NCBI GenBank assembly: GCA_963753395.1
Contig: CAVWBW010000009.1
Location: 2,633 to 66,632 of the forward strand
Source of the DNA: an uncultured delta proteobacterium
Lineage (GTDB): Bacteria > Myxococcota_A > Polyangia > Polyangiales > Houyiibacteriaceae
Reading direction: 5' to 3'
DNA: 64,000 nucleotides
Part shown: one piece after another, positions 281-19,100 of the stretch
Layout of the letters: each line of letters starts with the position of its first letter
How positions within the stretch are numbered: the stretch's first letter is position 1
Translations under genes and position numbers: made by a program
Notes under the pieces: model-generated
Database searches by the model: none
The model's input: the letters and a program-made list of their open reading frames with translations, nothing else
What the model was told of the DNA's origin: nothing

Positions 281-537
281 CTAGAGTGTATGCACCATCT
301 CCACATCCCACTCCACCTCGCGCTCCTGTCGCTTCCCATCGCAATCCTCGTAATGATCACGTGCGGGCGCATGCGCGCGCGCGACATGCCTACTTCGGCT
401 ACGCCTCGGTGCCAGTCGGTTTCGATGTCGGTGAGGGCGACGAGGATGACGACGTCGTTTTCTAGGCCCTTGAAGCCGGGGCGGTGCGACGCTGCCTGCG
501 CTCCTCGGGAGATCGCGAAGCGTTCCGCGATTTCCAT
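281..537 (-). repeat. R1: relic of the 3' end of an SF1/UvrD_C-type helicase gene, through its stop codon
   Basis: The minus strand reads ...HRPGFKGLENDVVILVALTDIETDWHRGVAEVGMSRARMRPHVII, then a 1-nt deletion, then DCDGKRQEREVEWDVEMVHTL*. No helicase body lies upstream. It is alignable at nt level to R2-R7. Confidence 0.8.
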
Positions 538-539
538 GC

Positions 540-778
540 CGACCGGAGTGCCCTTCTCTACCTGCGTCCGCGTGCCACTTTCGTCCGACTTTGCCTCCGC
601 AGACGTGGCAGCGTCGTCCCGTCTTCTTCAGGACTGAAGTGCGCTGTCTCTGCGTGAGGGAGCGACGTGGCGCCTTGTTGGTGCCTTTTCTCTGGCGGCG
701 TTCTTCGCGAAGCCTAAGAAGCTTCTTGCGTAGAGTGCTTGCTTGGCGGGGGCGAGGCTTTGAACCCTTGGTGCTCAT
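540..778 (-). pseudogene. 5' fragment of a small HNH endonuclease gene, truncated at the R1 junction
   Basis: MSTKGSKPRPRQ...LTQRQRTSVLKKTGRRCHVCGGKVGRKWHAD matches the start of an HNH motif (C-x2-C ... W-x-x-D-H). The sequence then runs into helicase-relic sequence and the rest of the HNH motif is absent. Confidence 0.4.
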
Positions 779-1005
779 GGTGGCGAGATTGCACGAGTGG
801 ACGGCTCAGGGGAAGCCGGTGGCGTTGAGGGCCCAGGCGTTGATTGAGATGGCATTGTTGAGGACGGGTGGCTTCGGCGGCTTGCTCGGGGTGACGGTGG
901 TCGAGCTCGACAGCGACTCGAAACACGGAGCGAGGCATCACGACCGCAGTGGCATCACCCAATTCAGGTTGTTAGCCTGATGAGGGGTCTTCTTCAGGAG
1001 GGGTT

Positions 1006-1113
1006 ATGAAGGATGACAAGGGATCGCCGTCGGCGAACGTGGTGCTCGTGAAGGAAGCGGAGGAAGTGCGCACGCCGCTAAGGTTGAGCTCGATGCCTCC
1101 GCAGGGGTGGTGA
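1006..1113 (+). CDS. small hypothetical protein (35 aa)
   Basis: An AGGAGG motif precedes the ATG (caggaggggttATG). Its stop overlaps the GTG start of the next ORF (GTGGTGA). It is too short for the ORF track. Confidence 0.3.
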   Translation: MKDDKGSPSANVVLVKEAEEVRTPLRLSSMPPQGW

Positions 1114-1364
1114 AGGTGACTGCTCACGGGGCCAGGGGACGTGGCGTTTGGAAGTGGATAATTCTTGCCGGCATCGGTGGGGTTCTCCTGGGTGTGTTCG
1201 TGGGCTTTCTTACAGCGACGGTGATGAGCAGGCGGAGTGCGTACAACCTTGCGGTTCGTGATGGTAAAGCGTGTACGAAGGGTCGTGAAGCTAGGAAAAT
1301 GTTTCGATCGGGCTCGAAGCAGCGCAGAAGCAAGGCGGGGGGTACCGCCATCCGTCGACTATGA
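1107..1364 (+). CDS. small single-pass membrane protein with a basic tail
   Basis: An 85-aa ORF with a hydrophobic helix (WKWIILAGIGGVLLGVFVGFLTATVM) followed by a K/R-rich tail. It overlaps the preceding small ORF. Confidence 0.4.
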   Translation: MVKVTAHGARGRGVWKWIILAGIGGVLLGVFVGFLTATVMSRRSAYNLAVRDGKACTKGREARKMFRSGSKQRRSKAGGTAIRRL

Positions 1365-1385
1365 AGCCATAGAGCAGCTCGTACC

Positions 1386-3509: not shown

Positions 3510-5695
3510 TTAACCTGCCACCTTGGTTTTCACAGTGGGGTTGCCATCCCACTTCTGGAGATGGTGGACGACAGCGATGTCGAAGAAGCCCTCGGACTCG
3601 AGGAAGCTAACGAAGTCCTCATCTTGTGTGGAAACCACGACCTGACGCTGCTTTGCGATCTCGGTGACGACCTTGGCCATGGCTTCTTTGCAAGGTTGGT
3701 CGAGGTTCTGGGTCGGGTCGTCTACGTAGAGCAAGTCTAGGTTGTGGGTTTTGGCGTCGGAGAACGCAAAGAAGAGGCCGATGGCTGTTGCGGTCACCTG
3801 GCCGTCTGAAAGAACCATGCGCGCTTCGCGCGCGGTGGCTTCCTTGCCACCGGGAGCTCACTTCGAACGAGTAGTCGAGCTTGTTGGCCTTGGGCTGGGT
3901 GGCGAGTGTGAGCGAGTCGAACACGGGGTGCCTGACGAGCTGCTGGTAGAGCTGATTTGCTCGCGGGCTCGCTTGGGCAAGCGTCGTGGTCGCAAGCTCG
4001 TTCTTCGCGTCGAGCAGTGCGCTCCGCAGCACGGTGAGCTTGTCGGCCGTTGCATCGAGCTCGTGCGCCGCTTCCGCGTCTTTCAGGTGCGACTTCTGGG
4101 TCTCGATCCATGCGTCTTCGAGCTTCGCAAGCTCGTCCCGCTTCTTCAGCACGGGGACGAGGCCTTCGCGAATTCGTCGCTCAGCTTCCTCGAGCTCCGA
4201 GAAGATGTGCTCCATCGCCTCCGCCCCTTTGGAGAGCTCGGCAAGTTGCTTCTCGAGCGCGCTCGTGGCTTCGGCGAGACGCGATTCGATTTTCGTCTCG
4301 GGAATCCCGGCACCGCCGAGGGCCTCGACGATGTCGGTGCGCACGGTGTTGACTGCTTCCTCTGCATCGTTGAGCGCTTTTTCGAGCTCGCCGAGCGTGG
4401 CGAGGTGGAGATCGAGCTGGCCGAGCTCGGCTTCCGCTTTGGCGACGTCTGCCTGGAGATCAGCCGCTTCGGTCGAGGTCAGCGCGGTCAATCGAGAAGT
4501 CAGCTTTGAAACGAGCGCGGCCGCGGACTCGACGGACTGCTCGCAGAGTGGACAGTGGTCCGTGGGGTTGAGATTCGAGCAAATCCTTTCCATCGGCTAG
4601 GAGCTGGCGGAGCTGCCCCGCCGCCTTCAAGGCTAGGCGCTTGTCGTCGAGCGCGCTCAGCATGGCAGCCCGTTTTGCCGCGAGGGCATCGCGGGTGCCG
4701 TGCTGTTCCACCCAATTGGCGTTGTCCTCGTGGGCCTTCGCGCGCTGCTCAAACGCGGACTGCAGGCGTGCCGCTAGGGACTGATGTTGAGCTATCGACG
4801 TCGTGATTGGCGTGAGCCGCTTCTGCAGCGCTGAATCGGTTCGGATGCTCCGTACGCCGGCCGTTACCTGCTCGGCAACTCCTGGGGCGAGGGCCACTGC
4901 GGTGCACTCGGAAATCAGGGCGACCTCGACTTCGTACTTGCTGGCGAGGCGCTGGAGCCGCTCTCCGACTCCGGCGTAGGCCTTCTTGAGGCCGGCGCTG
5001 CTGAAATCTTTACTGACGAACTTGCGCTCTCTTGCGGCGGTCTCCGCGTCCTTCTTCTGCTGTGCGAGAAGCTCCTCCCGGGCTGCGTGATTCCTCTCGT
5101 CCTCGACGATTTGTGATCGACGCGCCTCGGCTTGCTTTGTGAAGTCTCTGGGCTTGAGTCTCGACAGGATGGCTTCGATATCGTCCATGCCGAGGAGCCG
5201 ATCGAGGGCTGCGTTTCGATCTTTGGGTGAATCGAGGAGGAGCCCGCGGATGCGGCTTTGTTGGAGAAGGACGGTGCGGACGAAGCCGGCCATGTCGAGC
5301 CCGAGGATGCGGTCGCGTTGTTGTTCCGCTTCGTCGCCCTCGTAGGTGTTGCCGTCAAGCTCCAGGGTGAAGCTCTTGGAACCGTGGTCGCGTGTGAGGA
5401 TGAGGGTTTGTTTGCCGGACTCGAGGGTCACCCTCCCAAACCAAGCCGCGCTCTTCGCGCTCACCGGCGCGAGGAAGGCTTTGAAACCGGTGTTCGACAA
5501 GACCTCGGAAGGGAACTTGCCGTAGAGGGTCCACTGGATGCTCTGCGCGACGGTGGACTTGCCGACACCGTTGTCTCCGTGGAGCAGGCCGGGCTTCGTC
5601 GAGAAGTCGTATTTGATATCGGTCGCGACGCCGCGGAAGCTTCGGATCTCGACTGAGTGGAGGCGCCAGCGAGCCGCTTCGATTGAATCGCTCAT
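3510..5695 (-). pseudogene. Rad50/SbcC/SMC-like ATPase with a CxxC hook, two frame breaks
   Basis: Walker A is GDNGVGKST and the Q-loop is LLQQ. Long coiled-coil stretches flank a central HCPLCEQ hook. The signature is LSDGQ, Walker B is LLYVDDP and the H-loop-like element is VVVSTQD. Sense is spread over three ORF-track frames (4460..5797, 3619..4593, 3510..3818), with breaks near 4560-4587 and 3845-3858. Confidence 0.75.
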
Positions 5696-5700
5696 TCGGC

Positions 5701-5868
5701 TCACTCCTGATCTGCGGTGCGATTTATGAGCTCGGCCAGCACTGCGTCTACGCCGGCTCCGCCGTCTTTCTGGTAGGCGCTCCAGAGCTTCTTCCATAGC
5801 GGAAGTACATCTTCGCCACCCTTCTGCTCCTTGAGCTGCCTCACGACAGCTTCGTTGATCCCTTCCAT
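5701..5868 (-). CDS. small acidic helical protein (55 aa)
   Basis: The hand translation is MEGINEAVVRQLKEQKGGEDVLPLWKKLWSAYQKDGGAGVDAVLAELINRTADQE*. A GGAGGAG motif precedes the ATG. It ends 5 nt before the ATPase start and is below the ORF-track length cutoff. Confidence 0.4.
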   Translation of the reverse strand: MEGINEAVVRQLKEQKGGEDVLPLWKKLWSAYQKDGGAGVDAVLAELINRTADQE

Positions 5869-5928
5869 CAACTACTCCTCCGGTTCGTCCGTTTTCCTAA
5901 GGTGGGGTCTTTGTCGTTTCGACTAGGC

Positions 5929-6141
5929 TCATTGGGCTCCCGGGCTCGCGCAAATCCAATGGCAGTTGAGGCTGATGTCGCTCTCGCAGATGCAGATTGG
6001 GTGTTTGCCTGGTTCGCAGATGGGTTTGACGTCGATGCAGCGGGAGCTGGTTGGGGTGGGTTCAGTTGTTGGAGTCGGTGCGGTGCCCGCGAATATGGCC
6101 GCGGCGGCGACTAAGAAACCTGCCCGAACTGAGTTGCGCAT
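5929..6141 (-). CDS. secreted Cys-rich peptide (knottin-like 6-Cys spacing)
   Basis: A signal peptide (MRNSVRAGFLVAAAAIFAGTA) is followed by a PT-rich linker and then C-x6-C-x7-C-x-C-x7-C-x3-C. A GGAGG motif lies 6 nt upstream of the ATG. Confidence 0.5.
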   Translation of the reverse strand: MRNSVRAGFLVAAAAIFAGTAPTPTTEPTPTSSRCIDVKPICEPGKHPICICESDISLNCHWICASPGAQ

Positions 6142-6235: not shown

Positions 6236-6463
6236 ATGAGCGGCACGGCCATCATCGTTCTCATCGTCGCGGGGCTGATTGCGCTCTTCGTGGGGAGCCT
6301 GGTGGCAGGGGTTACGGTGTTGTTGCCGGGTGCGACCTTGCTTGCGGCGGTCATCATCGGGAGCATGGCGGGCGGCTGGGTTGGGGGGATTGCGGGGTTC
6401 TTCGTTTGGATGGCGTTCTTCTTTGGCGGCACGATTGTGATGGCGTTGAGCGACGACGAGTAG
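6236..6463 (+). CDS. small Gly-rich membrane protein
   Basis: It reads MSGTAIIVLIVAGLIALFVGSLVAGVTVLLPGATLLAAVIIGSMAGGWVGGIAGFFVWMAFFFGGTIVMAL, hydrophobic throughout. Confidence 0.5.
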   Translation: MSGTAIIVLIVAGLIALFVGSLVAGVTVLLPGATLLAAVIIGSMAGGWVGGIAGFFVWMAFFFGGTIVMALSDDE

Positions 6464-6474
6464 GCGATGCAGAG

Positions 6475-6501
6475 GTGCCAGTCGGTTTCGATGTCGGTGA
6501 G
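6475..6501 (-). repeat. R2: shortest helicase-relic copy (LTDIETDWH core only)
   Basis: gtgccagtcggtttcgatgtcggtgag is identical to the core of R1 and R6. Confidence 0.6.
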
Positions 6502-6507
6502 CTGGCG

Positions 6508-6813
6508 CTACGCCGCGCGCGGGTCGTTCTCGGGGGATTCGATGCTCAACCGAAGACCCAGGGCTTCGACAATCAGGCCGAGGCTCGACAGGCGGGGGTT
6601 TCCGTTTTCGGAGAGGGTTCGGTAGAGGGTTTCGCGGTTGAGGCCGGTGGCTTCGGCGAGGTGGGCCATGCCGCCTTGGGCGTCGACGACGTCGCGGAGA
6701 CCGATGAGGAAGACTTCGTCGCCTTCTTCGAGGCAGGCGGTGAGGTAGTGGGCGGCCTCGATTGGGTCCTGCAGACGGGGGAGGAGGAGGTCACGATAGG
6801 GGACGGTTGGCAT
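6508..6813 (-). CDS. higA: addiction-module antidote protein, HigA-type HTH
   Basis: It reads MPTVPYRDLLLPRLQDPIEAAHYLTACLEEGDEVFLIGLRDVVDAQGGMAHLAEATGLNRETLYRTLSENGNPRLSSLGLIVEALGLRL. It overlaps the toxin gene by 23 nt. Confidence 0.85.
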   Translation of the reverse strand: MPTVPYRDLLLPRLQDPIEAAHYLTACLEEGDEVFLIGLRDVVDAQGGMAHLAEATGLNRETLYRTLSENGNPRLSSLGLIVEALGLRLSIESPENDPRAA

Positions 6814-7135
6814 CTTTATGCGCCCTCCAGTAGCGCTTGGCTCGCGCGATGTCGCGCGGCTGCGTCTGTTTGTCGCCGGCACAGAGGAGAAGGAGCACTG
6901 CCCTTCCCTGCCGTGCGAAGTAAATCCGATAGCCGGGACCGTGGTGAACCCGGAGCTCGTGCACACCTTCGCCGATTGGCTTGGCGTCGCCGAAGTTGCC
7001 GTCGCGAAGACGCGCAATGCGAGCTCGAATCCGTGCGCGGGCGCGAACGTCCCTCTGGGCCAGCAACCAATCGTTGAACGGGGTGCGACCGTCGGGCGTC
7101 CGGTAGACGCGGACTTCGATCTCGGGCGATGTCAT
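6791..7135 (-). CDS. higB: addiction-module killer protein, RelE/HigB-type toxin
   Basis: It reads MTSPEIEVRVYRTPDGRTPFNDWLLAQRDVRARARIRARIARLRDGNFGDAKPIGEGVHELRVHHGPGYRIYFARQGRAVLLLLCAGDKQTQPRDIARAKRYW, the pattern of this toxin family. Confidence 0.85.
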   Translation of the reverse strand: MTSPEIEVRVYRTPDGRTPFNDWLLAQRDVRARARIRARIARLRDGNFGDAKPIGEGVHELRVHHGPGYRIYFARQGRAVLLLLCAGDKQTQPRDIARAKRYWRAHKDANRPLS

Positions 7136-7235
7136 GCGTGTTGGGCATGTAGCTTATAGGCTACATCGAGTAGTCGGCCGGATCAAGCGCTCGCAGCCGG
7201 AGTACGGGTGTTGTCGACCGCTCGCAGCGGCAGTT

Positions 7236-7300
7236 GCGCGCGCGCGCGACATGCCCACGTAGGCTGCGCCTCGGTGCCAGTCGGCTTCGATGTCGGTGAG
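7236..7300 (-). repeat. R3: helicase-relic copy (LTDIEADWHRGAAYVGMSRARA)
   Basis: It matches the R1/R4/R6 core at nt level and includes an alternating GC run. Confidence 0.75.
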
Positions 7301-7414
7301 GCGGCCTTTCGCTTGCGCCGTGGGGAGGGGCTTGACGGGCTTTTGGTGGCGAGGCCTGGATCCGGTAGCTTGAAGACTGAGTGATGCGGTACTTCGTGGG
7401 GATTTTGGCTGGGC

Positions 7415-7990: not shown

Positions 7991-8079
7991 GGCCTCGGGG
8001 CAGGCGTCGGATTGAAGGTGTTTTCTTGGCCGATCCGCGTTGGCGGGCAACGCTCTCGCGCCAGCGACGGGCTCAATCC

Positions 8080-8174
8080 TCGTGAATGATGACGTGCAGC
8101 CGCGTGCGCGCGCGGCATGCCCACGTAGGCCACGCCTCGGTGCCAGTTGGTTTCGATGTCGGTGAGGGCGGCGG
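8080..8174 (-). repeat. R4: helicase-relic copy (LTDIETNWHRGVAYVGM..R.RLHVIIHE)
   Basis: It matches the other copies at nt level and has an internal indel relative to R1. Confidence 0.75.
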
Positions 8175-8237
8175 AGGGACACGCGGTCGAGGTGAGTTTC
8201 TTCTTCGGGGCGCGGGGTCTTCGGGAGCAGAACGGTC

Positions 8238-8576: not shown

Positions 8577-8607
8577 CCGACGCTCGCCGTGGGAGGATAG
8601 CCCAGCT

Positions 8608-8643
8608 ACAGGCCGCGCGGCCTGTTGTTTTTGTCGTGTTTTT
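8608..8643 (+). terminator. hairpin plus T-tract element, copy 1 (acaggccgcgcggcctgt + tgtttttgtcgtgttttt)
   Basis: A perfect 16-nt GC palindrome (CAGGCCGCGCGGCCTG) is followed by a T-rich tract on the + strand. It is identical to the copy at 33215. Confidence 0.6.
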
Positions 8644-8717
8644 GAGCAACTTCGGGCGGGGGTGGTCGATGACCCAGCATGCGTGGAGGGTTTGCCGTGG
8701 GCGCGGAAAGCAAGTAT

Positions 8718-8951
8718 ATGGCAGATATGGCAAACCGGACGACGGTGGTGTTGACCGATGAGGATGAGCAGGCGCTTCGGGAGGCGAGCCGGCGTGAGGG
8801 GGTGTCGCAGTCGGAGCTGATTCGGCGGGGGGTTCGGATGGTGACGGCGGCGTATCGGCGGCGTGGGGGGCCGTCTGTTGGGTGGCTGACGTTGAGTCGG
8901 GCGGAGCGGAAGGCGCTGCAGGCCGATGAGTTTGGGGACTTCGACGGGTGA
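8718..8951 (+). CDS. vapB: ribbon-helix-helix (CopG/VapB-type) antitoxin
   Basis: It reads MADMANRTTVVLTDEDEQALREASRREGVSQSELIRRGVRMV. Its stop overlaps the GTG start of the PIN gene (GTGA). Confidence 0.8.
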   Translation: MADMANRTTVVLTDEDEQALREASRREGVSQSELIRRGVRMVTAAYRRRGGPSVGWLTLSRAERKALQADEFGDFDG

Positions 8952-9370
8952 AACAGTTGAGTGGGGGGCCGCTGATCTTGGATACCGGGGGGTGGCTCTA
9001 CGCGCTCGGGGGGGACGAGGCGTACGCGAGCGCATTGCGGGATGCGCGGCCTGCCATCGTGCCGTCGCTCGTGCTTGCTGAAGTCGATTGGCACTTGCGG
9101 AGGCGGCGGGAGGACATGGGGCGGCTGCTCAAGGAAGTGTCGCAGGGGGCCTATGCGTATGAGCCGATGACGTTCGATGATGTGGAGCGGGCGGCACAGG
9201 TGGATCGGAAGTTTGCGGACTTGGGGCTCGGGATTGTGGATGCGTCGATTGTGGCGTTGGCGGAGCGCTTGGATGTGCGGCGGATCTTGACGATTGACCG
9301 GGACTTCTCGGTGGTGCGGATGGGGAAGCGGTGGCGGAAGGCGTTTGAGCTGGTGGTGCCGCTTGGGTAG
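8948..9370 (+). CDS. vapC: PIN-domain toxin (VapC-type)
   Basis: It has LILDTGGWLYAL, ...VLAEVDW and ...LGIVDASIVALAERL..RRILTIDRDF, consistent with the conserved acidic PIN residues. Confidence 0.85.
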   Translation: MKQLSGGPLILDTGGWLYALGGDEAYASALRDARPAIVPSLVLAEVDWHLRRRREDMGRLLKEVSQGAYAYEPMTFDDVERAAQVDRKFADLGLGIVDASIVALAERLDVRRILTIDRDFSVVRMGKRWRKAFELVVPLG

Positions 9371-10770: not shown

Positions 10771-11835
10771 TCACCCGTCGATTGCGTAGAACTCGCGTGC
10801 GTTCTCGGCGAAGAACTTCGCCTTGTCTGCGTCGGTCCGCGTCGACAAGAGCGCGTCGAGGCCCGAGACGAGCGTGGCGTAGTCGATCGACACTTTGTCC
10901 ATCGGGAAGTTCGATTCGAACATGCACCGGTCGATTCCGATCGTCCCAATCGCCCATTCGATCAGCGGGCCAACGCGGTCGACGAACTCTTGTTCGCTCA
11001 TGGGCTGGTCCCGGTGCTCGGCGCCAAATCCGACGATCGGCATCAATAGCCCCCCGACCTTGAAGCGCACGTGAGGAATGCTCGCGAAGTTGGCGATCGC
11101 CTCTTTCCATTCGTTGGCGATGCGGACGCGTTCCGCGGGATTGCCGCCGAGCCCGCCGTAAGGGCCGGCGAGCGCGATCGGCGTTGCCAAGTGGCAGAGC
11201 ACCACCTTCGTTTCCGGTTGGGAGCGAACGAGGTCGCCGAACTCGTCGAGCTGATGGTGGTACATCCAGGCGTCGAAGCTAAGACCACGCTTGCCGAGGA
11301 GCGCGTAGCCTTCGCGCCATGCGGGGTTTCGAATGAGGCCTGGTTCGCGCGCGAAGTCGACGATGGCTTCGTTCGGGTGGGCCGCGAGCATGTCCCGAAC
11401 TCCACGGAAGCGTGTGCTCGCGCGCTGGTGTGCATCGAGCACGTCACCGAGATCCGGGGCCTCGAGATGGGCTGCACCGACGATGGCGCGGATCGTCGTT
11501 CCCGCGGGGTCGATGCTTTCGAGCCAACGGGTCTCGTCGACGAGGTCGATGTGCTGCTTGCCCTTCCAGCCCGCTTGAACGTGGACAATCCCTCGAAGCC
11601 GATCCCGGTAGCGCCCCCAATCGCTGGGCAAATCGCTCGGCAGATAGTGGTTCAGCGCGTACTCGCCGCGCCCGACGAAATCGACGAGAGGCTTCGGCAT
11701 GGCGTGGCGAACGACGAAGTCGAGCAAGCGCGGGCTCCAGCCAAAAAGCTTGACCGCGACGCTGGCTTCTCGCGGAGTGGTGCGCGGGTCCCATTGGTGA
11801 ACGTGCGAATCGACGATGGCAGGTGCGAGACTCAT
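10771..11835 (-). CDS. amidohydrolase-family protein
   Basis: It starts MSLAPAIVDSHVHQWD (an HxH metal motif) and is an intact 354-aa ORF. The track ORF extends further upstream through helicase-relic sequence and is not credible there. Confidence 0.9.
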   Translation of the reverse strand: MSLAPAIVDSHVHQWDPRTTPREASVAVKLFGWSPRLLDFVVRHAMPKPLVDFVGRGEYALNHYLPSDLPSDWGRYRDRLRGIVHVQAGWKGKQHIDLVDETRWLESIDPAGTTIRAIVGAAHLEAPDLGDVLDAHQRASTRFRGVRDMLAAHPNEAIVDFAREPGLIRNPAWREGYALLGKRGLSFDAWMYHHQLDEFGDLVRSQPETKVVLCHLATPIALAGPYGGLGGNPAERVRIANEWKEAIANFASIPHVRFKVGGLLMPIVGFGAEHRDQPMSEQEFVDRVGPLIEWAIGTIGIDRCMFESNFPMDKVSIDYATLVSGLDALLSTRTDADKAKFFAENAREFYAIDG

Positions 11836-11854
11836 GGGGGCTGACTCTAGACGA
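11711..11854 (-). repeat. segmental duplication copy A (amidohydrolase start plus about 20 nt upstream)
   Basis: Near-identical to 13432..13575, apart from a few substitutions and a 1-nt indel close to the ATG. Confidence 0.85.
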
Positions 11855-11883
11855 AATGCTGGCGTTTTGGGTTGTGAATGATG

Positions 11884-12036
11884 AGGTGCAGGCGCGTGTG
11901 GGGGCGCGACGTGCCTCCGCAGGTCACGCCGCGGCGCGGGTCGGTTTCGATCTCGGTGAGGGCGGCGAGGATGGCGACGTCGTTTTCTAGGCCCTTGAGG
12001 CCGGAGACGATGGGCCAGGTGATGATTCGTGAGCAA
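11884..12036 (-). repeat. R5: helicase-relic copy (ITWPIVSGLKGLENDVAILAALTEIETDPRRGV...LHLIIH)
   Basis: It matches R1, R6 and R7 at nt level and extends further 5' in gene sense than R1-R4. Confidence 0.8.
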
Positions 12037-12132
12037 GTGCTGGGGTCAGTGGTCGATGACGGGGTGTGAGGACGGTTTGCAACTGCCCAAGGTCGATCTT
12101 TGATATTAAATTTGGTATAGGGTGAATTGGTT

Positions 12133-12417
12133 ATGTGGCGGGTTGTCGAGGCGACTGGCATCGGGAGGCAACTCGGGCGCGCACCGAAGCAGGTGCAGGA
12201 GAAGTATGAGTTTTGGAGAAGCGTGGCGGAGCTCGATGGGCCGATGGGGCTTCAGCGGTTGCCGGGGTTTCGGGACCATGCGCTCAAGGGTGAGTGGAGG
12301 GGCGCGCGGTCGTCCGCACTATCCCGTCAGTGGCGGGTCATCTATGTGGTTGTCGGCGACGAGCTGACTGTGTTCGTGCTGGAGGTGAATCCTCATGACT
12401 ACCGGAAGAAAGACTAA
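12133..12417 (+). CDS. RelE/HigB-like toxin
   Basis: It reads MWRVVEATGIGRQLGRAPKQVQEKYEFWRSVAELDGPMGLQRLPGFRDHALKGEWRGARSSALSRQWRVIYVVVGDELTVFVLEVNPHDY. Confidence 0.8.
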   Translation: MWRVVEATGIGRQLGRAPKQVQEKYEFWRSVAELDGPMGLQRLPGFRDHALKGEWRGARSSALSRQWRVIYVVVGDELTVFVLEVNPHDYRKKD

Positions 12418-12688
12418 GGCGGCGCTCAAAGGGCGGTTCTCGCCAGCAAAGGTGCGGCGGCGGCTGTCGGTTGGGCAGTCCGTGCGCATCGCGCGAGAGC
12501 TCAATCAGCTCAGTCAGAACGAGCTTGCTCGGCTGACTCGGATTGCGCAGTCGACGATTTCGGCGATTGAGACGGACCGGGTGAAGCTCGGTGCGGAACG
12601 GGCGAAGACGCTCGCGCGGGCGCTCAAGGTGCATCCGGCGGTGCTGCTGTTTCCGGGCTGGCGAACGGAGGACGAGAGCGCGGCGTAG
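12395..12688 (+). CDS. XRE-family HTH antitoxin
   Basis: It contains SVRIARELNQLSQNELARLTRIAQSTISAIETDRVKLGAERAKTLARAL and overlaps the toxin gene by 23 nt. Confidence 0.85.
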   Translation: MTTGRKTKAALKGRFSPAKVRRRLSVGQSVRIARELNQLSQNELARLTRIAQSTISAIETDRVKLGAERAKTLARALKVHPAVLLFPGWRTEDESAA

Positions 12689-12695
12689 GGGCGTC

Positions 12696-12840
12696 GATGA
12701 GGCCTGCAGCCGTGTGTGCGCGCGACATGCCCACGTAGGCTCCGCCTCGGTGCCAGTCGGTTTCGATCTCGGTGAGGGCGGTGGGGATGACGACGTCGTT
12801 TTCTAGGCACTTCAAGCCGGAGGCGGTGGACCAGGTGATG
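12696..12840 (-). repeat. R6: helicase-relic copy (ITWSTASGLKCLENDVVIPTALTEIETDWHRGGAYVGMSRA...)
   Basis: It matches R1 and R5 at nt level. Similarity may continue to about 12900. Confidence 0.8.
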
Positions 12841-12899
12841 GTGTTTCTCTTCGTCGGCGCGCCGGGCTTTGAGGAGCAGGGCGGAGATCCGGCGCCTGG

Positions 12900-13331
12900 T
12901 CAGGCTTCGAGCATGTGCTTGATGTTCTCCATCGAGCTCTCGACGTTTCGCTGGTTTTGCTTCGAGATCAGGTGCTCGGCGAGCTTGCCGACAACCGGAA
13001 TCGGAATGGAGTACTGGACCTTCATCGTGAGCTTGGTGCCGCCTCCCTCTGGCTCGACGTCTGCAGCCCAGGTGCTCGACACCCCGCCCTGGCTTTCGGT
13101 GACCGTTCGGCGGTTGGGCACGTGCTCGATGGTCGTGCTCTGTCCTTTGAGCGGGATGCCCACCATCTTGAACGTCCAATGAAAGTGCCGGCCGACTCCG
13201 GGAGGGCCTTCCACCTCGGAGACCTCCATCATGCCTATCATCCATTCGGGGTCATTGAGTGGGTTGTCGATGTACTCGAATACCTTCTCAGCGGGTGCAT
13301 TGATGATGATGCTGTTCTCGATAGTTTCCAT
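12900..13331 (-). CDS. SRPBCC-superfamily (polyketide cyclase/START-like) protein
   Basis: It reads METIENSIIINAPAEKVFEYIDNPLNDPEWMIGMMEV...KLTMKVQYSIPIPVVGKLAEHLISKQNQRNVESSMENIKHMLE. GGAGG lies upstream of the ATG. Confidence 0.85.
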   Translation of the reverse strand: METIENSIIINAPAEKVFEYIDNPLNDPEWMIGMMEVSEVEGPPGVGRHFHWTFKMVGIPLKGQSTTIEHVPNRRTVTESQGGVSSTWAADVEPEGGGTKLTMKVQYSIPIPVVGKLAEHLISKQNQRNVESSMENIKHMLEA

Positions 13332-13384
13332 GGGTTGCCTCCGTTGGATGAGACAAGGTGACCATGGAAGGAGCGGTGGCGTCC

Positions 13385-13401
13385 ATACGTAATTCTTTCC
13401 T
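13385..13401 (-). promoter_or_regulatory. AT-rich motif AGGAAAGAATTACGTAT (gene-sense), site a
   Basis: It lies 53 nt upstream of the SRPBCC ATG. The same 17-mer occurs at 30892..30908 and its 10-nt core at 17571..17580, each in the same orientation relative to its gene. Confidence 0.45.
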
Positions 13402-13431
13402 CGGAATCCTCGCGGGAGAGCTCGCCCATGC

Positions 13432-13575
13432 GGCCGACGAAGTCGAGCAAGCGCGGGCTCCAGCCAAAGAGCTCGACCGCCACGCTGGCTTCTCGCGGAG
13501 TGGTGCGTGGGTCCCATTGGTGAACGTGCGAATCGATAATGGGAGGGGGAGACTCATGGGGCCTGACTCTAGACG
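13432..13575 (-). pseudogene. orphan 5' fragment of the amidohydrolase gene (duplication copy B)
   Basis: It reads MSL.. then a 1-nt deletion, then SHVHQWDPRTTPREASVAVELFGWSPRLLDFV, and diverges after that. It includes the same roughly 20 nt upstream of the ATG as copy A. Confidence 0.8.
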
Positions 13576-13972
13576 AGACTCTTGCGTCGCGGCGGGCCTA
13601 GCCGGAACAAAGGCACTCTCGGCGCGGCACGCGACGCGAGATCACGAGTCGTACCTCGAAACTTAGCTCTTGGAATGCGCCCGATGGGCTGAGAGAGCCC
13701 AATGAGCGAAGAGAGGATCTCGAACAGTTGGGGAGCGGGCCTTCATGCGCTTCACGCTAGCGTTCTTCCATCGCTTCACGACGGACGGAGGAGGGCGGTG
13801 ATTTCAGGCTTGCTCATGAGCTCGTCGTCCGTGTGTGCATCCACTGCGTGACTCGCTCGCACTGCGAAAATGCTGCGCGCCGTCGAGACGTTCGACCCAC
13901 TCGTTCCCAAGAGATTTCGCCGCTTGGCGCCTGGCATACAAGTTGCGTCGTGACGGTACCTAAGAGGTCGTC

Positions 13973-15718
13973 ATGTTGCGCAAATACGCTTTTCTGGTGG
14001 GTGTCCTAGTGGGGTTGTCGCTGCTGGCCGTCGTAGGCTGCAGCAATGACGGAGATGGTGAAGGCGGCGGCGAAGGAACGGCGCTCAGCCTGGACGGGGA
14101 GACCGCGATGCCCGCCACGGGCGGTGCGTCCGTTGCAGTCGATCGAGGCGTCGCGTTTTCGACCGTGATCTCGAGTATGCTCGCAGAGCTTGCCGTCGAC
14201 GCCCAATCGACTTCCGCAGCGGCGAAGATCAACGCTCCCTTGGAGATTTGTCCGGGAGGGGGTAGCGCGGTCCTCGACGGAGTGCTCGCAGGCAGCGAAA
14301 CGGCGTCACTCACTTTAATGGACTGCGTTGGCTCACCGCTTGGTGGCACGGCCAATGGAACACTACTGCTCGGAGATCTCACGGAAAGCTTTGTCGGCAC
14401 CACCCTCGAGGCCAGCGCCACCGCGTCGCTGGGCGGTCGAGGTGATAGCTATCCGGAATTCACGATCGATCCCAGCACCGTGCTCAGAGGCAACTTCGAG
14501 GTCCAAGCGGACATCACGCTGAGCTTCTCTCCCGAGATCACGGTGAGCCAAATCGACCTCGTGTTGGGACGTAGCGAGCCCGAACCGAGCAGTGACGACT
14601 GGATCCTCGTTGAAGATGAAGATGCAAGCGGAACGGAGTTGCGAGTGACGTGCTTCGAGATTTCCACGAGCATCGCCACTTCGCCATTCGCGATCAACTC
14701 CTTCCAGCCTCGGGGTGTTTTGGTTTTGGAGGGGGACGTCTACACGTTCAACGGCCCGGACATCGGTTTCGATGTCTCGGCTGGTAGTGCGATTCCCGTT
14801 TCCGGGACGATCGAGCTATCGAGCGGTGACCAGATGGGATGCGGCGAAGGTTCCGGAGATGGGTCGAGCGTGCAGGCAGAGCTCTACCAAGAAGGAGCCA
14901 CCACGTTCGTCAACGTGACGGCGACGGGCGCAGACGGGACGGTCTACGTATGCACTGAACAATGGGAGAACCTTCTCGCCACCCTGGGTGACCTCAACGC
15001 CTTCGAGCGCTGCCCGCCTGCTGTCGCAGGCGATGTGCTCACATGCTCCGAGGACGCCTTGCTGGACTTCAACGCCTATCTCGACCCGCTCATCGAGGTA
15101 CTCAAGCAGGTCGACAGCCCAGGGTCCGAAAACGACTTTCTCATCGACTGGACAAGCAGCGACGAAGCGGGGCTATTCGCGATCGGCGTCGACGCGGACG
15201 GCAGCGGAGGACCCGAGCGTGAGCTGTCCGGTAGGGTGACGCCCAAGGAACCCTGCTCGGGCGGTATGGAAAAAGACGACATCTGCATCCTGGAATGGAC
15301 CGTCAACATGAGGACGTCGTCCGCAGAGGAGGTCGCATATGGCCGCATCAGCGCTCTCGATTTCGGTGTCTCTCCTCTGACAAATACGAGCTCTCACCGA
15401 GTCCTGATCATCGACTTCGATCCGGATGATCCCGACAAGACCAACATCCAGATTGACCAAAGCAGCTTTTGCTCCATCGCCGTCAATCGATTTCAGATGC
15501 TCTGGCGGGGTGCAGACCCAGCGACCGGTTTTTCCGAAATGTACAACCTCGACATGGGTTTCGAAGCGTCCGTGCTGGGCGCGGCGACGGACAGTGGACG
15601 CGGCGACGTGATCTGGGGTAGCGGAACGGGCGCGGAGGCGACCATCACGTTCACGGTCGACGACGAGCGGTTCGACTGCGGTTTCGATGTGGACACGTTC
15701 GTAGTCTCCTGCCCCTGA
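13973..15718 (+). CDS. lipoprotein, hypothetical (581 aa)
   Basis: The signal and lipobox are MLRKYAFLVGVLVGLSLLAVVGC. The long ORF has an acidic, protein-like composition. The antisense ORFs over it are R/P-rich. Confidence 0.8.
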   Translation: MLRKYAFLVGVLVGLSLLAVVGCSNDGDGEGGGEGTALSLDGETAMPATGGASVAVDRGVAFSTVISSMLAELAVDAQSTSAAAKINAPLEICPGGGSAVLDGVLAGSETASLTLMDCVGSPLGGTANGTLLLGDLTESFVGTTLEASATASLGGRGDSYPEFTIDPSTVLRGNFEVQADITLSFSPEITVSQIDLVLGRSEPEPSSDDWILVEDEDASGTELRVTCFEISTSIATSPFAINSFQPRGVLVLEGDVYTFNGPDIGFDVSAGSAIPVSGTIELSSGDQMGCGEGSGDGSSVQAELYQEGATTFVNVTATGADGTVYVCTEQWENLLATLGDLNAFERCPPAVAGDVLTCSEDALLDFNAYLDPLIEVLKQVDSPGSENDFLIDWTSSDEAGLFAIGVDADGSGGPERELSGRVTPKEPCSGGMEKDDICILEWTVNMRTSSAEEVAYGRISALDFGVSPLTNTSSHRVLIIDFDPDDPDKTNIQIDQSSFCSIAVNRFQMLWRGADPATGFSEMYNLDMGFEASVLGAATDSGRGDVIWGSGTGAEATITFTVDDERFDCGFDVDTFVVSCP

Positions 15719-15828
15719 ATAGGGGGTGTGTCGGCGCACGTGCCGCAGTAAAGGAGTCGGCCAACGCAAGGCGTCGCGACGCCTTCGACGACGCGCAGTG
15801 TCTCCTCGTGTGGTCGCGCGTCCGCTGA

Positions 15829-16194
15829 TACAATCGACGTGGCGATGACGAAACCAACGCGGTCGTAGTTCTACATCACATCGGCGCGAAGACGGGCCAG
15901 GCGTGGCAAACGCCGCTGCTCTACTTCACTGAGGGCCAGAACGTGATTCTCGTCGCTGGGAATGGGGGCTTAGCGAACCATCCCGCTTGGCTGCACAATG
16001 TCCGCGCCAATCCGAACGTGGAGCTGTGGGTCGGCAAGCGTGGAGGCCCTTACCGCGCGCGTGTCGCCAACGCTGAAGAGCGGGCTACCCTCTGGCCCAA
16101 AGCGAGCGGCCTCTACTCCGGGTACGAGCGCTATCAGGAACTTGCGGGCGACCGCGAGATCAAGCTTGTCATCTGCGTGCCGCGCGGCTCGTGA
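15829..16194 (+). pseudogene. deazaflavin-dependent nitroreductase-family (DUF385-like) protein, N-terminally truncated
   Basis: Family-like sequence (VVVLHHIGAKTGQAWQTPLLYFTEGQNVILVAGNGGLANHPAWLHNVRANPNVELWVG...ERATLWP...YERYQ) is open from 15829. No ATG, GTG or TTG occurs before the GTG at 15943. Confidence 0.5.
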
Positions 16195-16332
16195 TGGGTC
16201 CGGCCTCGTTCGGATGCGGTCCCCGGGTTTGAACACCCGCGTACAGATACGACGCTGGAAATGTCCGACCGAGGTTGACGGCGGAATCCTCTCCCTTTCC
16301 AGGCGCGCTGGTTTCGCAGTACATTCGGTGAT

Positions 16333-17469
16333 GTGGAACGTTCCTCCGTGCACGACGTTGTCGTCGTTGGAGCGAGTGCGGCCGGACTCGCTGTCGCCGC
16401 GTCGCTCAAGACCCGAGGCATCGACGCTGTCCTGCTCGAGCAGCGCGAGCACGTTGGCCACGCGTGGCGCAACCACTACGAGCGACTGCACCTTCATACC
16501 TCGCGCGGTCTGTCGGGGCTTCCCGGGTTTCCGATGCCCAAGAGCTATCCGCGCTACCCCAGCCGCCAACAGGTCATCGACTACCTCGAGGCGTACCGCG
16601 AGCACTTCGATCTGCACCCGCGCTACGGCCAGACGGTGAAGTCGGTGCGGCGCGAAGGCGACTTGTGGCTCGTCGAAACGACGATGGATCAGTTCCGCGC
16701 CCGTCGCGTCGTGGTCGCAACCGGATACACACGTCAGCCCGTGCGTCCGCGGTGGCCGGGCATCGACGACTACGTAGGCGAGCTGCTGCACAGCTCCGAA
16801 TACTCGAGCGGTGCCAGGTTCTCGGGCTCCCGTGTGCTGGTGGTGGGCTTCGGCAACTCCGCATGCGAGATCGCGATCGATCTCGTCGAGCAGGGCGCGG
16901 AGCCAAGCCTCGCAGTCCGCGGACCCGTCAACGTGGTCCCACGTGATGTCTTCGGCATCCCGATCCTGGGTGTAGGAATCGCGATGAGCTTCCTTCCGGC
17001 CAAGGTGGCAGACGTTCTCGGGAAACCGATCGTCGCCGCCTCGGTTGGGAACATCGAGGACGTCGGCCTGCGGCGGCTGCCGTACGGTCCGAACGTCCAG
17101 ATCCGCGAGCACGGGAGAATTCCCTTGCTCGACATCGGCACGATCGATCTCATCCGTAAGGAGAAGATCTCAGTGCGGCCCGGCATCGAGTCGTTTCATG
17201 AGGAGGGCGTCGTGTTCGTGGACGGTAGGCGGGAGGACTTCGCGGCGATCGTCCTGGGGACAGGGTATCGGCCCGCCCTCGCCGAGTTCGTCTCTGTGGA
17301 AGACATCGACGCGAAGACCGGCAGCCATGAGGGCAGCGGCTACCGGCTCGATGACGACTTGTACCTGTGCGGGCTTTACGTGTCGCCGACCGGAATGCTC
17401 CGAGAGATTGGGATCGAGGCTACTCGGATCGCCGAGGACGTTTCGAGGCGATCAGCGGCGAACTACTGA
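16333..17469 (+). CDS. flavin-containing monooxygenase-like NAD(P)/FAD oxidoreductase
   Basis: It has two dinucleotide-binding motifs (VVVVGASAAGLA and VLVVGFGNSACEIA) and an FMO-like segment (GHAWRNHYERLHLH). Confidence 0.9.
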   Translation: MERSSVHDVVVVGASAAGLAVAASLKTRGIDAVLLEQREHVGHAWRNHYERLHLHTSRGLSGLPGFPMPKSYPRYPSRQQVIDYLEAYREHFDLHPRYGQTVKSVRREGDLWLVETTMDQFRARRVVVATGYTRQPVRPRWPGIDDYVGELLHSSEYSSGARFSGSRVLVVGFGNSACEIAIDLVEQGAEPSLAVRGPVNVVPRDVFGIPILGVGIAMSFLPAKVADVLGKPIVAASVGNIEDVGLRRLPYGPNVQIREHGRIPLLDIGTIDLIRKEKISVRPGIESFHEEGVVFVDGRREDFAAIVLGTGYRPALAEFVSVEDIDAKTGSHEGSGYRLDDDLYLCGLYVSPTGMLREIGIEATRIAEDVSRRSAANY

Positions 17470-17570
17470 CTCCCGATGACCTGCCGGAGACGGGGGCCAG
17501 GTGATGTCGGCGCGGGGTCTTGAGGAGGAGGACGGAGTCAGCGCAAGATCTGCGCCGTCTCCCGGCAAAC

Positions 17571-17580
17571 AATTACGTAT
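17571..17580 (+). promoter_or_regulatory. AATTACGTAT core motif, site c
   Basis: It lies 50 nt upstream of the ATG at 17631, in the same orientation relative to its gene as sites a and b. Confidence 0.35.
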
Positions 17581-17630
17581 GTCCCAAACCCCTGGGCGGA
17601 CCCATATTCTCTCCGTAACAGGAGGTTCCT

Positions 17631-18917
17631 ATGCATCTTACGATTGGCTTGGCGGGTGCATTGGTGGTGCTGCTCGGAGCTCTGGCTGGATGTGATGGCA
17701 ATGATGGGAGCGAGGAGGCGACATACGCGTGGTGCGAGGTCTATCCACCCGCGTTTTTTGGTGAGTTCACAGCGGCGTCTTTTCCCGATCCGCTCGTTGG
17801 AACGGTCGTCGGGGGCATTTATCGAACGACGAACGGCGGTGTCTCGTGGACTACGCAGGAGGGTCCAGACGGGAACCGTTCCTACACGGATGTAGCGTTC
17901 ACCGACCTGAGTACGGGGACCATCGTTGGAAGTGACGGCACGATTCTCCGGACCACCGACGGCGGGGAAACCTGGGTTGCGCAGCAGAGCGGCACAGGGT
18001 CGATGCTCGCCGGGGTGTCCTTCATCGATGCGGACAACGGAATGGTTGTGGGCGGCGATGGCGTGATTCTCGGCACGAGCAACGGCGGGGAAACCTGGGT
18101 CGCCCAGGAGAGCGGGACTGACGCTCCGCTCTATGGCGTGTGGCTCAGCGACGCGACGATGGCGACTGTGGTCGGCGGGTTCGGGACGATTCTGCGAACC
18201 ACGGACGGCGGTGCGACCTGGGTTGCTGAGGACGGTGGTGGCGAGCTTCGGCTCACCGCGGTGTCGTTCGGAAGCGCGACGACGGGTGTCGCCCTGAGCC
18301 AGGACGGCGTGTACCTGCGAACGACCGACGGCGGCGCCTCGTGGACGCAATATGACGACTACAGCCCGGTGGCTCTCAACGATGTCTTCTTCGCCGACGC
18401 GAACGTCGGAACAATCGTCGGGGCATCGGGAACGATTCTTCGAACGACCGATGGAGGCGCCTCCTGGGCCTACGAGCTCTCCGACGCTGCGTACTGGTAT
18501 TCGGAGACGCCCGATAGCGATCCGATCCGCGTTGGCGGGACCTTCAACGGTGTGTCGATGGCCGACGCCATGAACGGCGTCGCGGCAGGAGGCGGGTTCA
18601 GTGTGATTCGGCGGATGCCAGTGCCGGACACGTACAGTGTATGCGACCCGTGGTGCGCGAAACTCGAGGAGTGCTACCCGGAAGACGGCGCCGGCTGCGA
18701 CATCGAGTGTCTCTGCAACCTTCGCTACCACTACAACATCAGGCCGGAGTGCGAGCGGGCTGTCGTCGAATCGCAGAGGTGCTTCACGGCGCTGACTTGT
18801 GAGCAAATCGACGCATGGTGGGACGACCCTGACAACCACCCGTGCACGGCGGCCGAGCGACAGATTGACATCGCCTGTGCCGATGAGCCGATGGACGGGG
18901 AGAGTGCGGGGCGGTAG
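17631..18917 (+). CDS. lipoprotein with a BNR/Ycf48-like beta-propeller and a Cys-rich C-terminal domain
   Basis: The lipobox is LGALAGC. Six S/T-x-D/N-G-G-x-T/S-W repeats are present (TTNGGVSW, TTDGGETW, TSNGGETW, TTDGGATW, TTDGGASW x2). Confidence 0.85.
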   Translation: MHLTIGLAGALVVLLGALAGCDGNDGSEEATYAWCEVYPPAFFGEFTAASFPDPLVGTVVGGIYRTTNGGVSWTTQEGPDGNRSYTDVAFTDLSTGTIVGSDGTILRTTDGGETWVAQQSGTGSMLAGVSFIDADNGMVVGGDGVILGTSNGGETWVAQESGTDAPLYGVWLSDATMATVVGGFGTILRTTDGGATWVAEDGGGELRLTAVSFGSATTGVALSQDGVYLRTTDGGASWTQYDDYSPVALNDVFFADANVGTIVGASGTILRTTDGGASWAYELSDAAYWYSETPDSDPIRVGGTFNGVSMADAMNGVAAGGGFSVIRRMPVPDTYSVCDPWCAKLEECYPEDGAGCDIECLCNLRYHYNIRPECERAVVESQRCFTALTCEQIDAWWDDPDNHPCTAAERQIDIACADEPMDGESAGR

Positions 18918-18942
18918 TACGAAATCGACGTCGAACCGGACC

Positions 18943-19100
18943 CTACAGCACCATCTCCACATCCCCCTCCCCCCCCCGCACTCCACCTGGCGCTCGCGTC
19001 GCTTGCCGTCGCAGTGCTCGTGGATGATGACCTGCAGCCGCGCGCGCGCGACGTGCCTCCGTAGGTCACGCCGCGGCGCGGGTGGGTTTCGATCTTGGTG
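18943..19100 (-). repeat. R7: helicase-relic copy through the stop codon (…IETHPRRGVTYGGTSRAR..LQVIIHEHCDGKRRERQVE..DVEMVL*)
   Basis: It shares the caccatctccacatccc 3' end with R1 and carries internal indels, including a poly-G/C run. Confidence 0.8.

Follow-up and report, generated by a model that had tools for sequence, protein, structure and literature searches.

Decaying 3' fragments of a NERD-nuclease and helicase gene punctuate a mosaic accessory island in a Polyangiales-like genome

The 64-kb stretch of DNA analysed here (positions 2,633 to 66,632 of contig CAVWBW010000009.1, hereafter the window) comes from a Polyangiales-like Myxococcota genome, has a G+C content of 63% and carries, in its first 19.2 kb, a co-oriented repeat family of 54–130 nt present in six to seven copies (families D1–D3 of the repeat search). 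Seven stretches, R1 to R7, could be aligned at the DNA level (MAFFT alignment A1), all of them on the minus strand, and a DNA profile built from them gave exactly seven matches across the window (nhmmer, E 5e-17 to 1e-50), with none on the plus strand or beyond 19.2 kb. An initial annotation had placed seven co-oriented relics of one helicase 3' end in the first 19 kb and none in the other 45 kb, which these searches bear out. In addition, tblastn with the peptide quoted there returned the same seven places (next-best match, E 0.5), and the minus-strand translations, reading ..ITW..SGLKGLENDVVIL.ALTDIETDWHRGVAYVGMSRAR.RLHVIIHE.CDGKR.ERQVEW..DVEMV, agree with it. The analysis below showed that the seven repeats are decaying 3' fragments of a ~590-aa gene coding for a NERD nuclease and a superfamily 1 (SF1) helicase, and that they punctuate a mosaic accessory island.

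The motifs GLENDxVIL and YVGMSRAR were found in the relic translations. Frameshifts, indels or truncation affect all seven copies, in line with the earlier view of them as differently truncated and non-functional, and R1 and R7 alone extend to where the frame ends, sharing there the tail ...GATGTGGAGATGGTG (D13/D14; A1), as also stated at the outset. The origin proposed for them, the last ~75 codons of a gene, was right as to the 3' end and too short as to the length, since the relics cover up to the last ~140 codons of the parent: in R1, homology to the parent runs from 714 down to 293, corresponding to parent residues ~462–598 (tblastn with the parent from contig L002, 714–352 and 349–293), and the open reading frame (ORF) found there, at 253–537, is protein P0049. 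An assembly artefact was ruled out, as the window copies are 61–90% identical to their family's reference copy and carry private indels. No tRNA or tmRNA usable as an att site was found in the window, no Rfam match within it reached the gathering score, the relic halves showed no unusual single-strand folding (z −1.45 to +0.14), and a scan of the array for sigma-70-like promoters gave 0 sites, below the count in shuffled sequences. With all seven copies broken and no intact parent present, the array in this window is a decayed example, a fossil.

The parent gene was found in other contigs (loci are numbered here with the prefix L and proteins with the prefix P). Searching proteins with the consensus peptide yielded 66 short ORFs (≤121 aa, with a mode at 97 aa), several of which carry UvrD_C_2 (PF13538) with SF1 helicase motifs V/VI. 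The intact parent is a ~590-aa protein made of NERD, an SLFN-g3 SF1 helicase and UvrD_C_2, and the SF1/UvrD_C-type origin suggested from the peptide is thereby supported. In L002, an intact 599-aa NERD and SLFN-g3 helicase gene at 6131–7930 ends in a relic-type tail, and its last 97 codons align with two downstream co-oriented copies truncated at their 5' ends; PF08378 (NERD) and PF09848 are carried by this gene and by P0071–P0190. Relics align to positions ~430–589 of the intact-parent profile. Within the 64-kb window, no intact parent and no N-terminal or middle parent fragment was found; the sole trace of a parent 5' region there, at 5881–6060, resembles the ~170 nt just upstream of the L009 parent, with overlap of its start (~8531). 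This trace sits in front of a decayed SMC-like gene.

Over its full length, the parent matched two PADLOC models, 'RTasNERD-Hel' (5e-43, the best model) and the candidate 'NERD+UvrD'. The family comprises 501 homologues at E≤1e-20, and its named members, annotated as 'NERD domain-containing protein', come from Myxococcota, Planctomycetota, Virgibacillus (Firmicutes) and Saccharibacteria. Intact single copies occur in the Myxococcota metagenome-assembled genomes (MAGs) L009–L011, with an HNH protein and a type I methylase among the genes around them, and neither a reverse transcriptase (RT) nor an integrase was found beside these three. A frameshifted copy in L025 has BREX genes on one side and, on the other, a large DEAD/Helicase_C protein with an MZB (PF09369) protein after it; we take this last pair to be DISARM-like. 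The parent gene family is typical of defence islands; NERD domains are reported to be enriched in such islands, and NERD-helicases accompany some UG34 RTs (PMC9226505). Three candidate readings of individual homologues were discarded. A relic lineage lacking an intact gene was refuted by P0074 and P0140, which have relic-type tails, and was an effect of candidate selection; P0073, considered as a 3'-end recombinant of the L002 parent, is merely a frameshifted stretch; and P0103 with P0051, considered as an insertion caught in the parent, are adjacent overlapping ORFs produced by a frameshift.

Scans of genome and metagenome collections yielded ~100 loci, among which the same architecture recurs. 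These loci were picked up through patterns in parent region 501–556, which is conserved and the easiest to detect, and were mapped with a protein profile of four intact parents. All the named loci correspond to Myxococcota, Polyangiales or 'Deltaproteobacteria' MAGs, except for one contig binned as Woesearchaeota and taken to be misbinned. More than one copy was present in 23 loci, and 39 of the 40 extra copies were co-oriented, so the scatter in both orientations expected of a generic repeat did not appear. The sole pair of relics in opposite orientation, which abut each other at 2655–3045 of L094, could be the product of an inversion or of the assembly.

Coverage of the parent by a first set of 30 relics was ~1x at positions 1–400, 8.5x at 451–500, 22.8x at 501–550 and 16.3x at 551–589, a 3' bias somewhat inflated by the way of detection, yet also shown by the non-index copies. 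The 5' ends of 87 relics were scattered over parent positions 301–545, whereas, out of 115 3' ends, 54 fell at the stop codon and 19 more at positions 553–561, a (CG)n tract encoding SRAR that may be a deletion hotspot. Beyond the stop codon, no sequence common to the copies was found (alignment A2). Tracts of (CG)5–6 in the SRAR codons of relics are seen, for example, at 7238–7255 of the window, ~8100–8118 of L001 and ~2665–2681 of L026. L002 is the only array with an intact parent at its head. The intact genes of L004 and L024 are found downstream of the relics, two copies in L026 have internal deletions and retain N-terminal parts, and P0132 consists of the tail fused to a NERD domain. Finally, the relic at 10136–10324 of L023 lies inside a conjugative type IV secretion system element (RepB primase, VirB4, TraG, TrbL/VirB8, TrbI) and is followed by an HTH_17 gene and a BrxC/PglY-like gene; this conjugative element is a possible vehicle for relics.

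The genes between the relics of the window were annotated with Pfam, PADLOC and NCBIfam (Table 1). Blocks of the window recur in other arrays at 74–94% nucleotide identity and in a different order, and the arrays draw on a common pool of small cassettes: toxin–antitoxin (TA) pairs, defence genes and single enzymes. The cargo of other arrays includes McrBC, BREX genes, GmrSD, a Dcm-Vsr-DUF4420-Z1 set, RES and AbiEi, and also RNase_T exonucleases, DUF1016, β-lactamase-fold and flavin enzymes. The cassette genes are found on both strands. The partition of the array into cassettes by relics, as first described, holds insofar as the DNA between them is accessory and modular; it fails insofar as not every block is bounded by relics, with five unrelated genes standing between R6 and R7 at 12.9–18.9 kb.

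Table 1. Relics, box U elements and cassette genes of the window (box U is described in the text)
Feature	Position	Strand	Evidence and remarks
Relic R1	276..714	−	Longest copy; frameshifted; to ORF end; nhmmer 276–508, E 1e-50
Decayed SMC/Rad50/LmuB-like ATPase	3510..5797	−	Pfam AAA_23/SMC_N; PADLOC LmuB 5e-15; NCBIfam
Trace of parent upstream region	5881..6060	−	blastn 77.6% over 134 nt, L009 8362–8541; tblastx match
Relic R2	6443..6532	−	Core only (LTDIETDWH...); nhmmer E 5e-17
HigB-like (Gp49)/HigA-like (dnstrm_HI1420)	6508..7135	−	Between R3 and R2; Pfam; in L001, L024, L026 at 85–89%
Relic R3	7183..7323	−	Truncated at both sides; nhmmer; alignment A4
Relic R4	8046..8196	−	LTDIETNW...HVIIHED; nhmmer E 7e-40
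Box U	8608..8696	−	nhmmer E 3e-22; on the opposite strand directly upstream of vapB
VapB (RHH)/VapC (PIN)	8679..9370	+	Pfam; in L004, L008, L022, L024 at 81–89%
Box U	9928..10015	−	E 2e-18; opposite-strand upstream of small-ORF/HTH_31 pair
Small-ORF/HTH_31 pair	10157–10697		Window 9934–10695 matches L024 6595–7356, 79%
Amidohydrolase_2	10771..11841	−	Directly downstream of R5; Pfam; L026 89.6%
Relic R5	11835..12035	−	ITWPIVSG...LHLIIH; nhmmer
Box U, truncated, fused to R5	12027..12081	−	Opposite-strand upstream of YafQ-like/HTH pair
YafQ-like toxin and HTH_3 antitoxin	12127..12688	+	Between R5 and R6; Pfam; L008 81%, L018 90%
Relic R6	12662..12856	−	ITWSTASGLKCLENDVV...; nhmmer E 5e-42
SRPBCC (Polyketide_cyc2) region	12900..13587	−	Pfam; D5/D15; 12889–13405 matches two L024 copies, 89%
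Relic-free block	13973..18917	+	Four ORFs; Pfam, NCBIfam
581-aa ORF	Within 13973..18917 block	+	No family match
F420H2 quinone-reductase fragment	15943–16194	+	Also in L026
FMO	16333–17469	+	94% to L006
BNR/Ycf48-like protein	17631–18917	+	
Relic R7	18931..19146	−	Frameshifted, reaches stop codon (..DVEMVL*); nhmmer E 1e-34; D13/D14
Box U, partial, outside array	33214–33252	−	
Box U, outside array	43945–44033	−	

Several junctions between relics and cassettes could be defined. R2 directly abuts the stop codon of the HigA-like gene (boundary comparison and translation), and R3 is cut at its 3' end in the (CG)n tract and joined there to the HigBA cassette, with an identical junction in L001 and L026. 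The 5' end of R5 is fused to a truncated copy of the second repeat of the array (box U, below), and its 3' end is joined to the region upstream of the amidohydrolase, a junction also present in L026 (window 10758–11915 against L026 3945–5101, 89.6%). R7 forms the boundary of the array on the side of the DUF2779 gene. Regarding the cassettes themselves, the SMC/Rad50/LmuB-like gene is split into three overlapping ORFs (4460–5797, 3619–4593 and 3510–3818) and is a decayed defence-type gene, and the helix-turn-helix (HTH) pair was found in L001, L004 and L024 too. The SRPBCC gene is preceded by a fused 158-nt duplicate (13430–13587 against 11707–11865, 87–92%) that comprises the amidohydrolase 5' end with its upstream junction, and because of this the SRPBCC ORF (12900–13517) begins with amidohydrolase codons. 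The 123-nt periodic direct repeat at 17800–18480 (D4/D6) corresponds to the BNR/Asp-box blades, which are ordinary protein repeats.

The second co-oriented repeat of the array, box U, is a ~90-nt element (..TCATCGACCACCGCCGCCCGAAGTTGCTCAAAAACACGACAAAAACAACAGGCCGCGCGGCCTG) that was also found in L001, L004, L008, L018, L022, L024, L028 and many JGI contigs. In all loci its significant matches run in the same direction as the relics, and it often lies directly 5' of a relic. Read on the opposite strand, box U presents a hairpin and then a T-run (terminator-like site at 8608–8625, plus strand) and stands just upstream of unrelated TA operons (VapBC, HTH pairs, YafQ/HTH). It may act as a common promoter/terminator module or mark the edge of a cassette; folding of box U as RNA gave no significant z-score. 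Junctions between box U and relics occur at many positions on both partners and look like the result of deletion and not of site-specific joining. Its interpretation as a diverged helicase motif IV region was rejected, as the protein alignment was weak and limited to one copy, and a DNA alignment with eight parents revealed no homology; box U is an independent element, not derived from the helicase.

When the relic cores were aligned, their subtypes followed the array and not the cassette. Subtype A was found in the window, L003, L007, L008, L018 and L026, subtype B in L001 and L022, subtype C in L002, L004 and L024, and subtype D in L006 and L012. For instance, the relic linked to HigBA meets its cassette at an identical 3' junction in three arrays, and right up to this junction it is of subtype A in the window and L026 and of subtype B in L001 (A4). 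In addition, the L022 relics at 4141–4377 and 9670–9906, 5.5 kb apart, are 100% identical over 237 nt, the identity stopping at the stop codon, and between them lie another relic (93% identical) and McrBC. The array-specific subtypes and this identical pair require gene conversion or crossover within relics, and the relics are therefore recombinationally active by way of homologous recombination. On the same two grounds, the better fit is with the alternative already contemplated in the initial annotation, a recombinogenic repeat that stems from a coding 3' end. Subtypes diverge from one another mainly at synonymous sites (median dN/dS 0.29), as do even two relics of the L022 array, and other pairs, within types, give neutral-looking values of 0.8–0.95; judging by these ratios, some relics appear to trace to different functional ancestors.

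No Phage_integrase, Resolvase, Recombinase, DDE, transposase or RT family was detected in the window array (Pfam, NCBIfam), and no integrase, resolvase, transposase or RT among the called genes of L001, L002, L022, L024/L027 and L026. A recombinase or RT was likewise missing from the 25 top families listed for 96 ORFs of 23 further loci, and no recombinase was found when 20 integrase-sized ORFs of those loci were scanned singly. Together, these negatives cover the window array and the ORFs examined in ~30 relic-bearing loci.

The flank of the array was then compared with that of relatives. On the upstream side of R7 are found a small membrane ORF, a baeRF12 gene and DUF2779, with the array beginning 1.1 kb from the DUF2779 gene. 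In L027/L024, the DUF2779 orthologue (71% identical in amino acids) is followed, 3.6 kb on, by an array ending in an intact parent. In L029 (DUF2779 81% identical in nucleotides), NmrA and a SIR2-HTH protein occupy the place of the array, with no relic, box U or parent, and in L028 (86%) a partial box U is followed by other genes. This place thus differs from one relative to another, and conservation of the array is not universal; L029, in particular, goes against a 19-kb segment conserved and collinear in relatives that lack the repeats. Clean presence or absence of segments bounded by relics, a check proposed in the initial annotation, was not seen, no genome pair being close enough.

The best explanation we can offer, to which we would give slightly less than an even chance, is that cassettes accreted and were shuffled, independently of any integrase, as helicase 3' ends underwent homologous recombination, and that deletions came afterwards. 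The helicase 3' end would act as a portable homology patch. A segment containing a helicase 3' fragment and its neighbour genes would loop out by recombination between two co-oriented copies, or would alternatively arrive on a conjugative element, and would re-enter through a single RecA-type crossover with any resident copy, which would yield a copy-cassette-copy arrangement in direct orientation. Later deletions would trim the copies, with many of the 3' deletion end-points at the (CG)n tract encoding SRAR, and gene conversion would keep the copies alike within one array. A dedicated recombinase would be unnecessary, and in this window the process would have run down. Under this scheme, the fixed 3' edge would be due to homology between sources stopping at the stop codon, where the downstream DNA differs, and the scattered 5' ends to the later trimming of the copies; the co-orientation, the array-specific subtypes, the identical pairs, the cassette–relic junctions inherited as units and the absence of recombinases would all be consequences of homologous recombination. 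A broader proposal, which we put forward as possible and on balance doubtful, is that in a Polyangiales clade the NERD-helicase 3' end, often together with box U, constitutes a self-propagating 'homology handle', an integrase-free counterpart of the integron, through which host homologous recombination, unaided, would capture and stack defence, TA and small metabolic cassettes and swap them among chromosomes and conjugative elements, helping to build defence islands.

Several observations weigh against this explanation. In L004 and L024, the body of the downstream parent belongs to another lineage (93% identical to L011, whose 3' end is only 68% like the relics), an arrangement that a simple crossover into that gene cannot give. 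The internally deleted copies of L026, with their N-terminal parts, imply that at least some relics began as whole genes, and these three loci (L004, L024 and L026) show that complete helicase genes also enter arrays and decay. Two relics of the L022 array differ mostly synonymously (dS 0.27, dN 0.03), so separate functional ancestors or selection on the relic ORF would be needed, and gene conversion alone, acting in a vertically inherited array, could be the source of the array-specific subtypes. Besides this, multi-gene stretches with no relic between the genes exist both in the window (12.9–18.9 kb) and in L024 (1–7.3 kb). A recombinase matched by a single smaller ORF of the 96 could have been missed, and the DNA to the left of the window, outside the analysed sequence, could hold an intact parent or a recombinase. 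Finally, the closest relatives are only 81–86% identical in the flanking gene, and neither a circular intermediate nor a presence/absence polymorphism between near-identical genomes was seen.

Other explanations were weighed as well. Serial site-specific integration would involve islets that carried a surrogate helicase 3' end, inserted into a resident gene and displaced its tails, the integrases and the head gene being lost later. Tandem islands in the 3' ends of genes classically leave behind pieces of the target that are co-oriented, shortened at the 5' side and alike in their 3' edge, and this is the architecture of L002; moreover, relics of one array can differ mainly synonymously, as if their tails had come from different functional sources, the L023 relic lies in a conjugative element beside an HTH_17 (Xis-like) gene, and the DNA left of the window falls outside the analysed sequence. 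We nevertheless regard this possibility as unlikely. Neither the window array nor the checked ORFs of the ~30 loci yielded an integrase, the 5' ends of the relics spread over ~250 codons with no core cluster (which erosion after insertion could blur), the cassettes measure only 0.6–6 kb, the relic subtype follows the array and not the incoming cassette, and the intact gene of L004 and L024 is downstream of the relics. For the same reasons (87 scattered 5' ends, no integrase found, a downstream parent in these two loci), the single attachment site with partial target duplicates proposed in the initial annotation was not supported in that form. Complete NERD-helicase genes of different lineages could, on the other hand, have accumulated by ordinary horizontal transfer and been mostly deleted afterwards, with 3' ends kept by chance or as signals for downstream genes and homogenised by gene conversion. 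Such passive decay agrees with the L026 copies that keep N-terminal parts and with the NERD-tail fusion P0132, with intact parents standing before (L002) or after (L004, L024) the relics, with relic dN/dS values of 0.1–0.3 that point to divergence while functional, with a DUF2779-side flank that is variable in relatives anyway (SIR2 in L029) and with the parent-upstream trace at 5881–6060. However, random loss predicts 5' and middle fragments to be as frequent, and the coverage by the 30 relics was ~1x at 1–400 against ~23x at 501–550, an argument that the easier detection of motif VI weakens and does not remove; the co-orientation of 39 of the 40 extra copies and the identical cassette–relic junctions in arrays of differing order also speak against it, and we regard it as unlikely, to the same degree as serial integration.

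Two further mechanisms appear more remote. The relic core, box U or both might be the recognition site of an integron-like or Xer-like recombinase encoded elsewhere in the genome. The small cassettes, the co-orientation of both repeat families and the lack of a recombinase inside the array recall integron arrays, CALINs (clusters of attC sites lacking an integrase) and pdif modules. Box U, for its part, is conserved ahead of TA operons of unrelated kinds and frequently adjoins a relic directly. This is very improbable, given that single-strand folding of the relics is unremarkable (z −1.45 to +0.14), that box U and relics are joined at many positions on both partners, that the subtypes differ by many synonymous changes, as coding sequences do and protein-binding sites do not, that box U also occurs outside arrays (43945–44033 of the window; L028), and that no IntI-like gene was found in the loci examined. 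Even less credible is that the relics are retro-copies reverse-transcribed from the helicase mRNA. Their truncation pattern, with shortened 5' ends and a common 3' end, is that of 5'-truncated retro-copies, the best PADLOC model is 'RTasNERD-Hel', and some UG34 RTs are accompanied by NERD-helicases (PMC9226505); however, no RT lies by the intact parents of L009–L011, no RVT family was found in the array genes or the other ORFs scanned, the relics end at the stop codon and not at a transcript end, a tail is absent, and cassette–relic junctions are inherited as units.

Among described systems, the closest likeness is to the orphan strings of Rhs, CdiA and MafB produced by C-terminal displacement, which are also co-oriented, 5'-truncated 3' fragments of one gene, variable in length and near-identical within a locus. 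For Rhs strings, homologous recombination with a circular intermediate has been put forward in a two-step model for strings whose core pieces differ in length (Jackson et al. 2009, PMC2935791). As in those strings, the variable DNA between the pieces is drawn from a common pool and the proposed recombination needs no dedicated recombinase. In contrast to Rhs, the relic homology runs to the stop codon (A2), the variable part consists of separate whole genes in either orientation and not of an alternative ORF tip with its immunity gene, the gene itself is a cytoplasmic helicase and not a secreted toxin, and L002 alone has an intact gene at the head of the string, the window copies being dead. 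Displacement or orphan strings are already known; in the present case the repeated gene is a defence-island helicase and the cargo consists of whole genes.

Other parallels are partial. Tandem islands are known in the 3' ends of tRNA and protein genes, as with phage 21 and e14 in icd and the Islander-type islands, and in them, as here, co-oriented 3' fragments of the target mark successive insertions and share a natural 3' edge; those islands, however, have an integrase by one att site, a fixed crossover core and a usual size >5 kb, none of which was found here. For the complex class 1 integrons that carry ISCR1, homologous integration of a circular intermediate has been proposed to duplicate part of the 3' conserved segment (3'-CS), and a single crossover there too yields segment, cargo and partial segment in direct orientation, repeated rounds building arrays; the circle in that case is made by the rolling-circle element ISCR1, whereas no such element was seen here. 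Integron arrays, CALINs and the pdif modules of Acinetobacter have in common with the present arrays the small TA and accessory cassettes between repeated sites and the absence of a recombinase inside the cassettes. Integron and pdif sites are short (28–120 nt), structured and recognised by IntI or XerCD, whereas the repeat described here is 60–450 nt of coding sequence with no special fold and variable junction positions. Differences from the remaining candidates are clearer. Contrary to the 'RTasNERD-Hel' systems of the defence-associated RTs (DRTs), no RT gene was found adjacent to the helicase, either among the L009–L011 neighbours or in the arrays; contrary to a diversity-generating retroelement, there is no RT, and indels as well as substitutions of every kind distinguish the copies (A1); and, contrary to repetitive extragenic palindromic (REP) sequences or miniature inverted-repeat transposable elements (MITEs), the repeat is of coding origin, with no copy in the other 45 kb of the window or on the other strand.

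The question addressed by these arrays is how defence and TA genes pile up in islands that hold no mobile-element genes. If the preferred explanation, recombination through the helicase 3' end, is true, a conserved gene tail travelling with each cassette would provide the homology by which cassettes are inserted, excised and shuffled. The signature to be searched for in other lineages consists of co-oriented 3' relics, array-specific subtypes and common cassette–relic junctions, and the array in the window is valuable as an example of it, not as an active system.

Other features of the window extend beyond the array. The stretches 8233–8577, within the array, and 30975–31306, outside it, both match ~2088–2433 of L008 at ~73–74% and include a small membrane/zinc-ribbon-like ORF; they are therefore paralogous. 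Between 43 and 48 kb the window has few ORFs with coding-like GC3 and contains a box U, and 46324–47335 resembles 1602–2703 of L024, a homologue of an array gene. Compared with L029 and L028, ~22 kb of the window lies between the orthologues of Abhydrolase_10 (44.3–45.6 kb) or DUF429 (~26 kb) and DUF2779, and this extra stretch includes SbcC (21743–25342) and a probable SbcD upstream of it. The extra DNA at ~22000–48300 indicates that the plastic region is larger than the 19-kb array.

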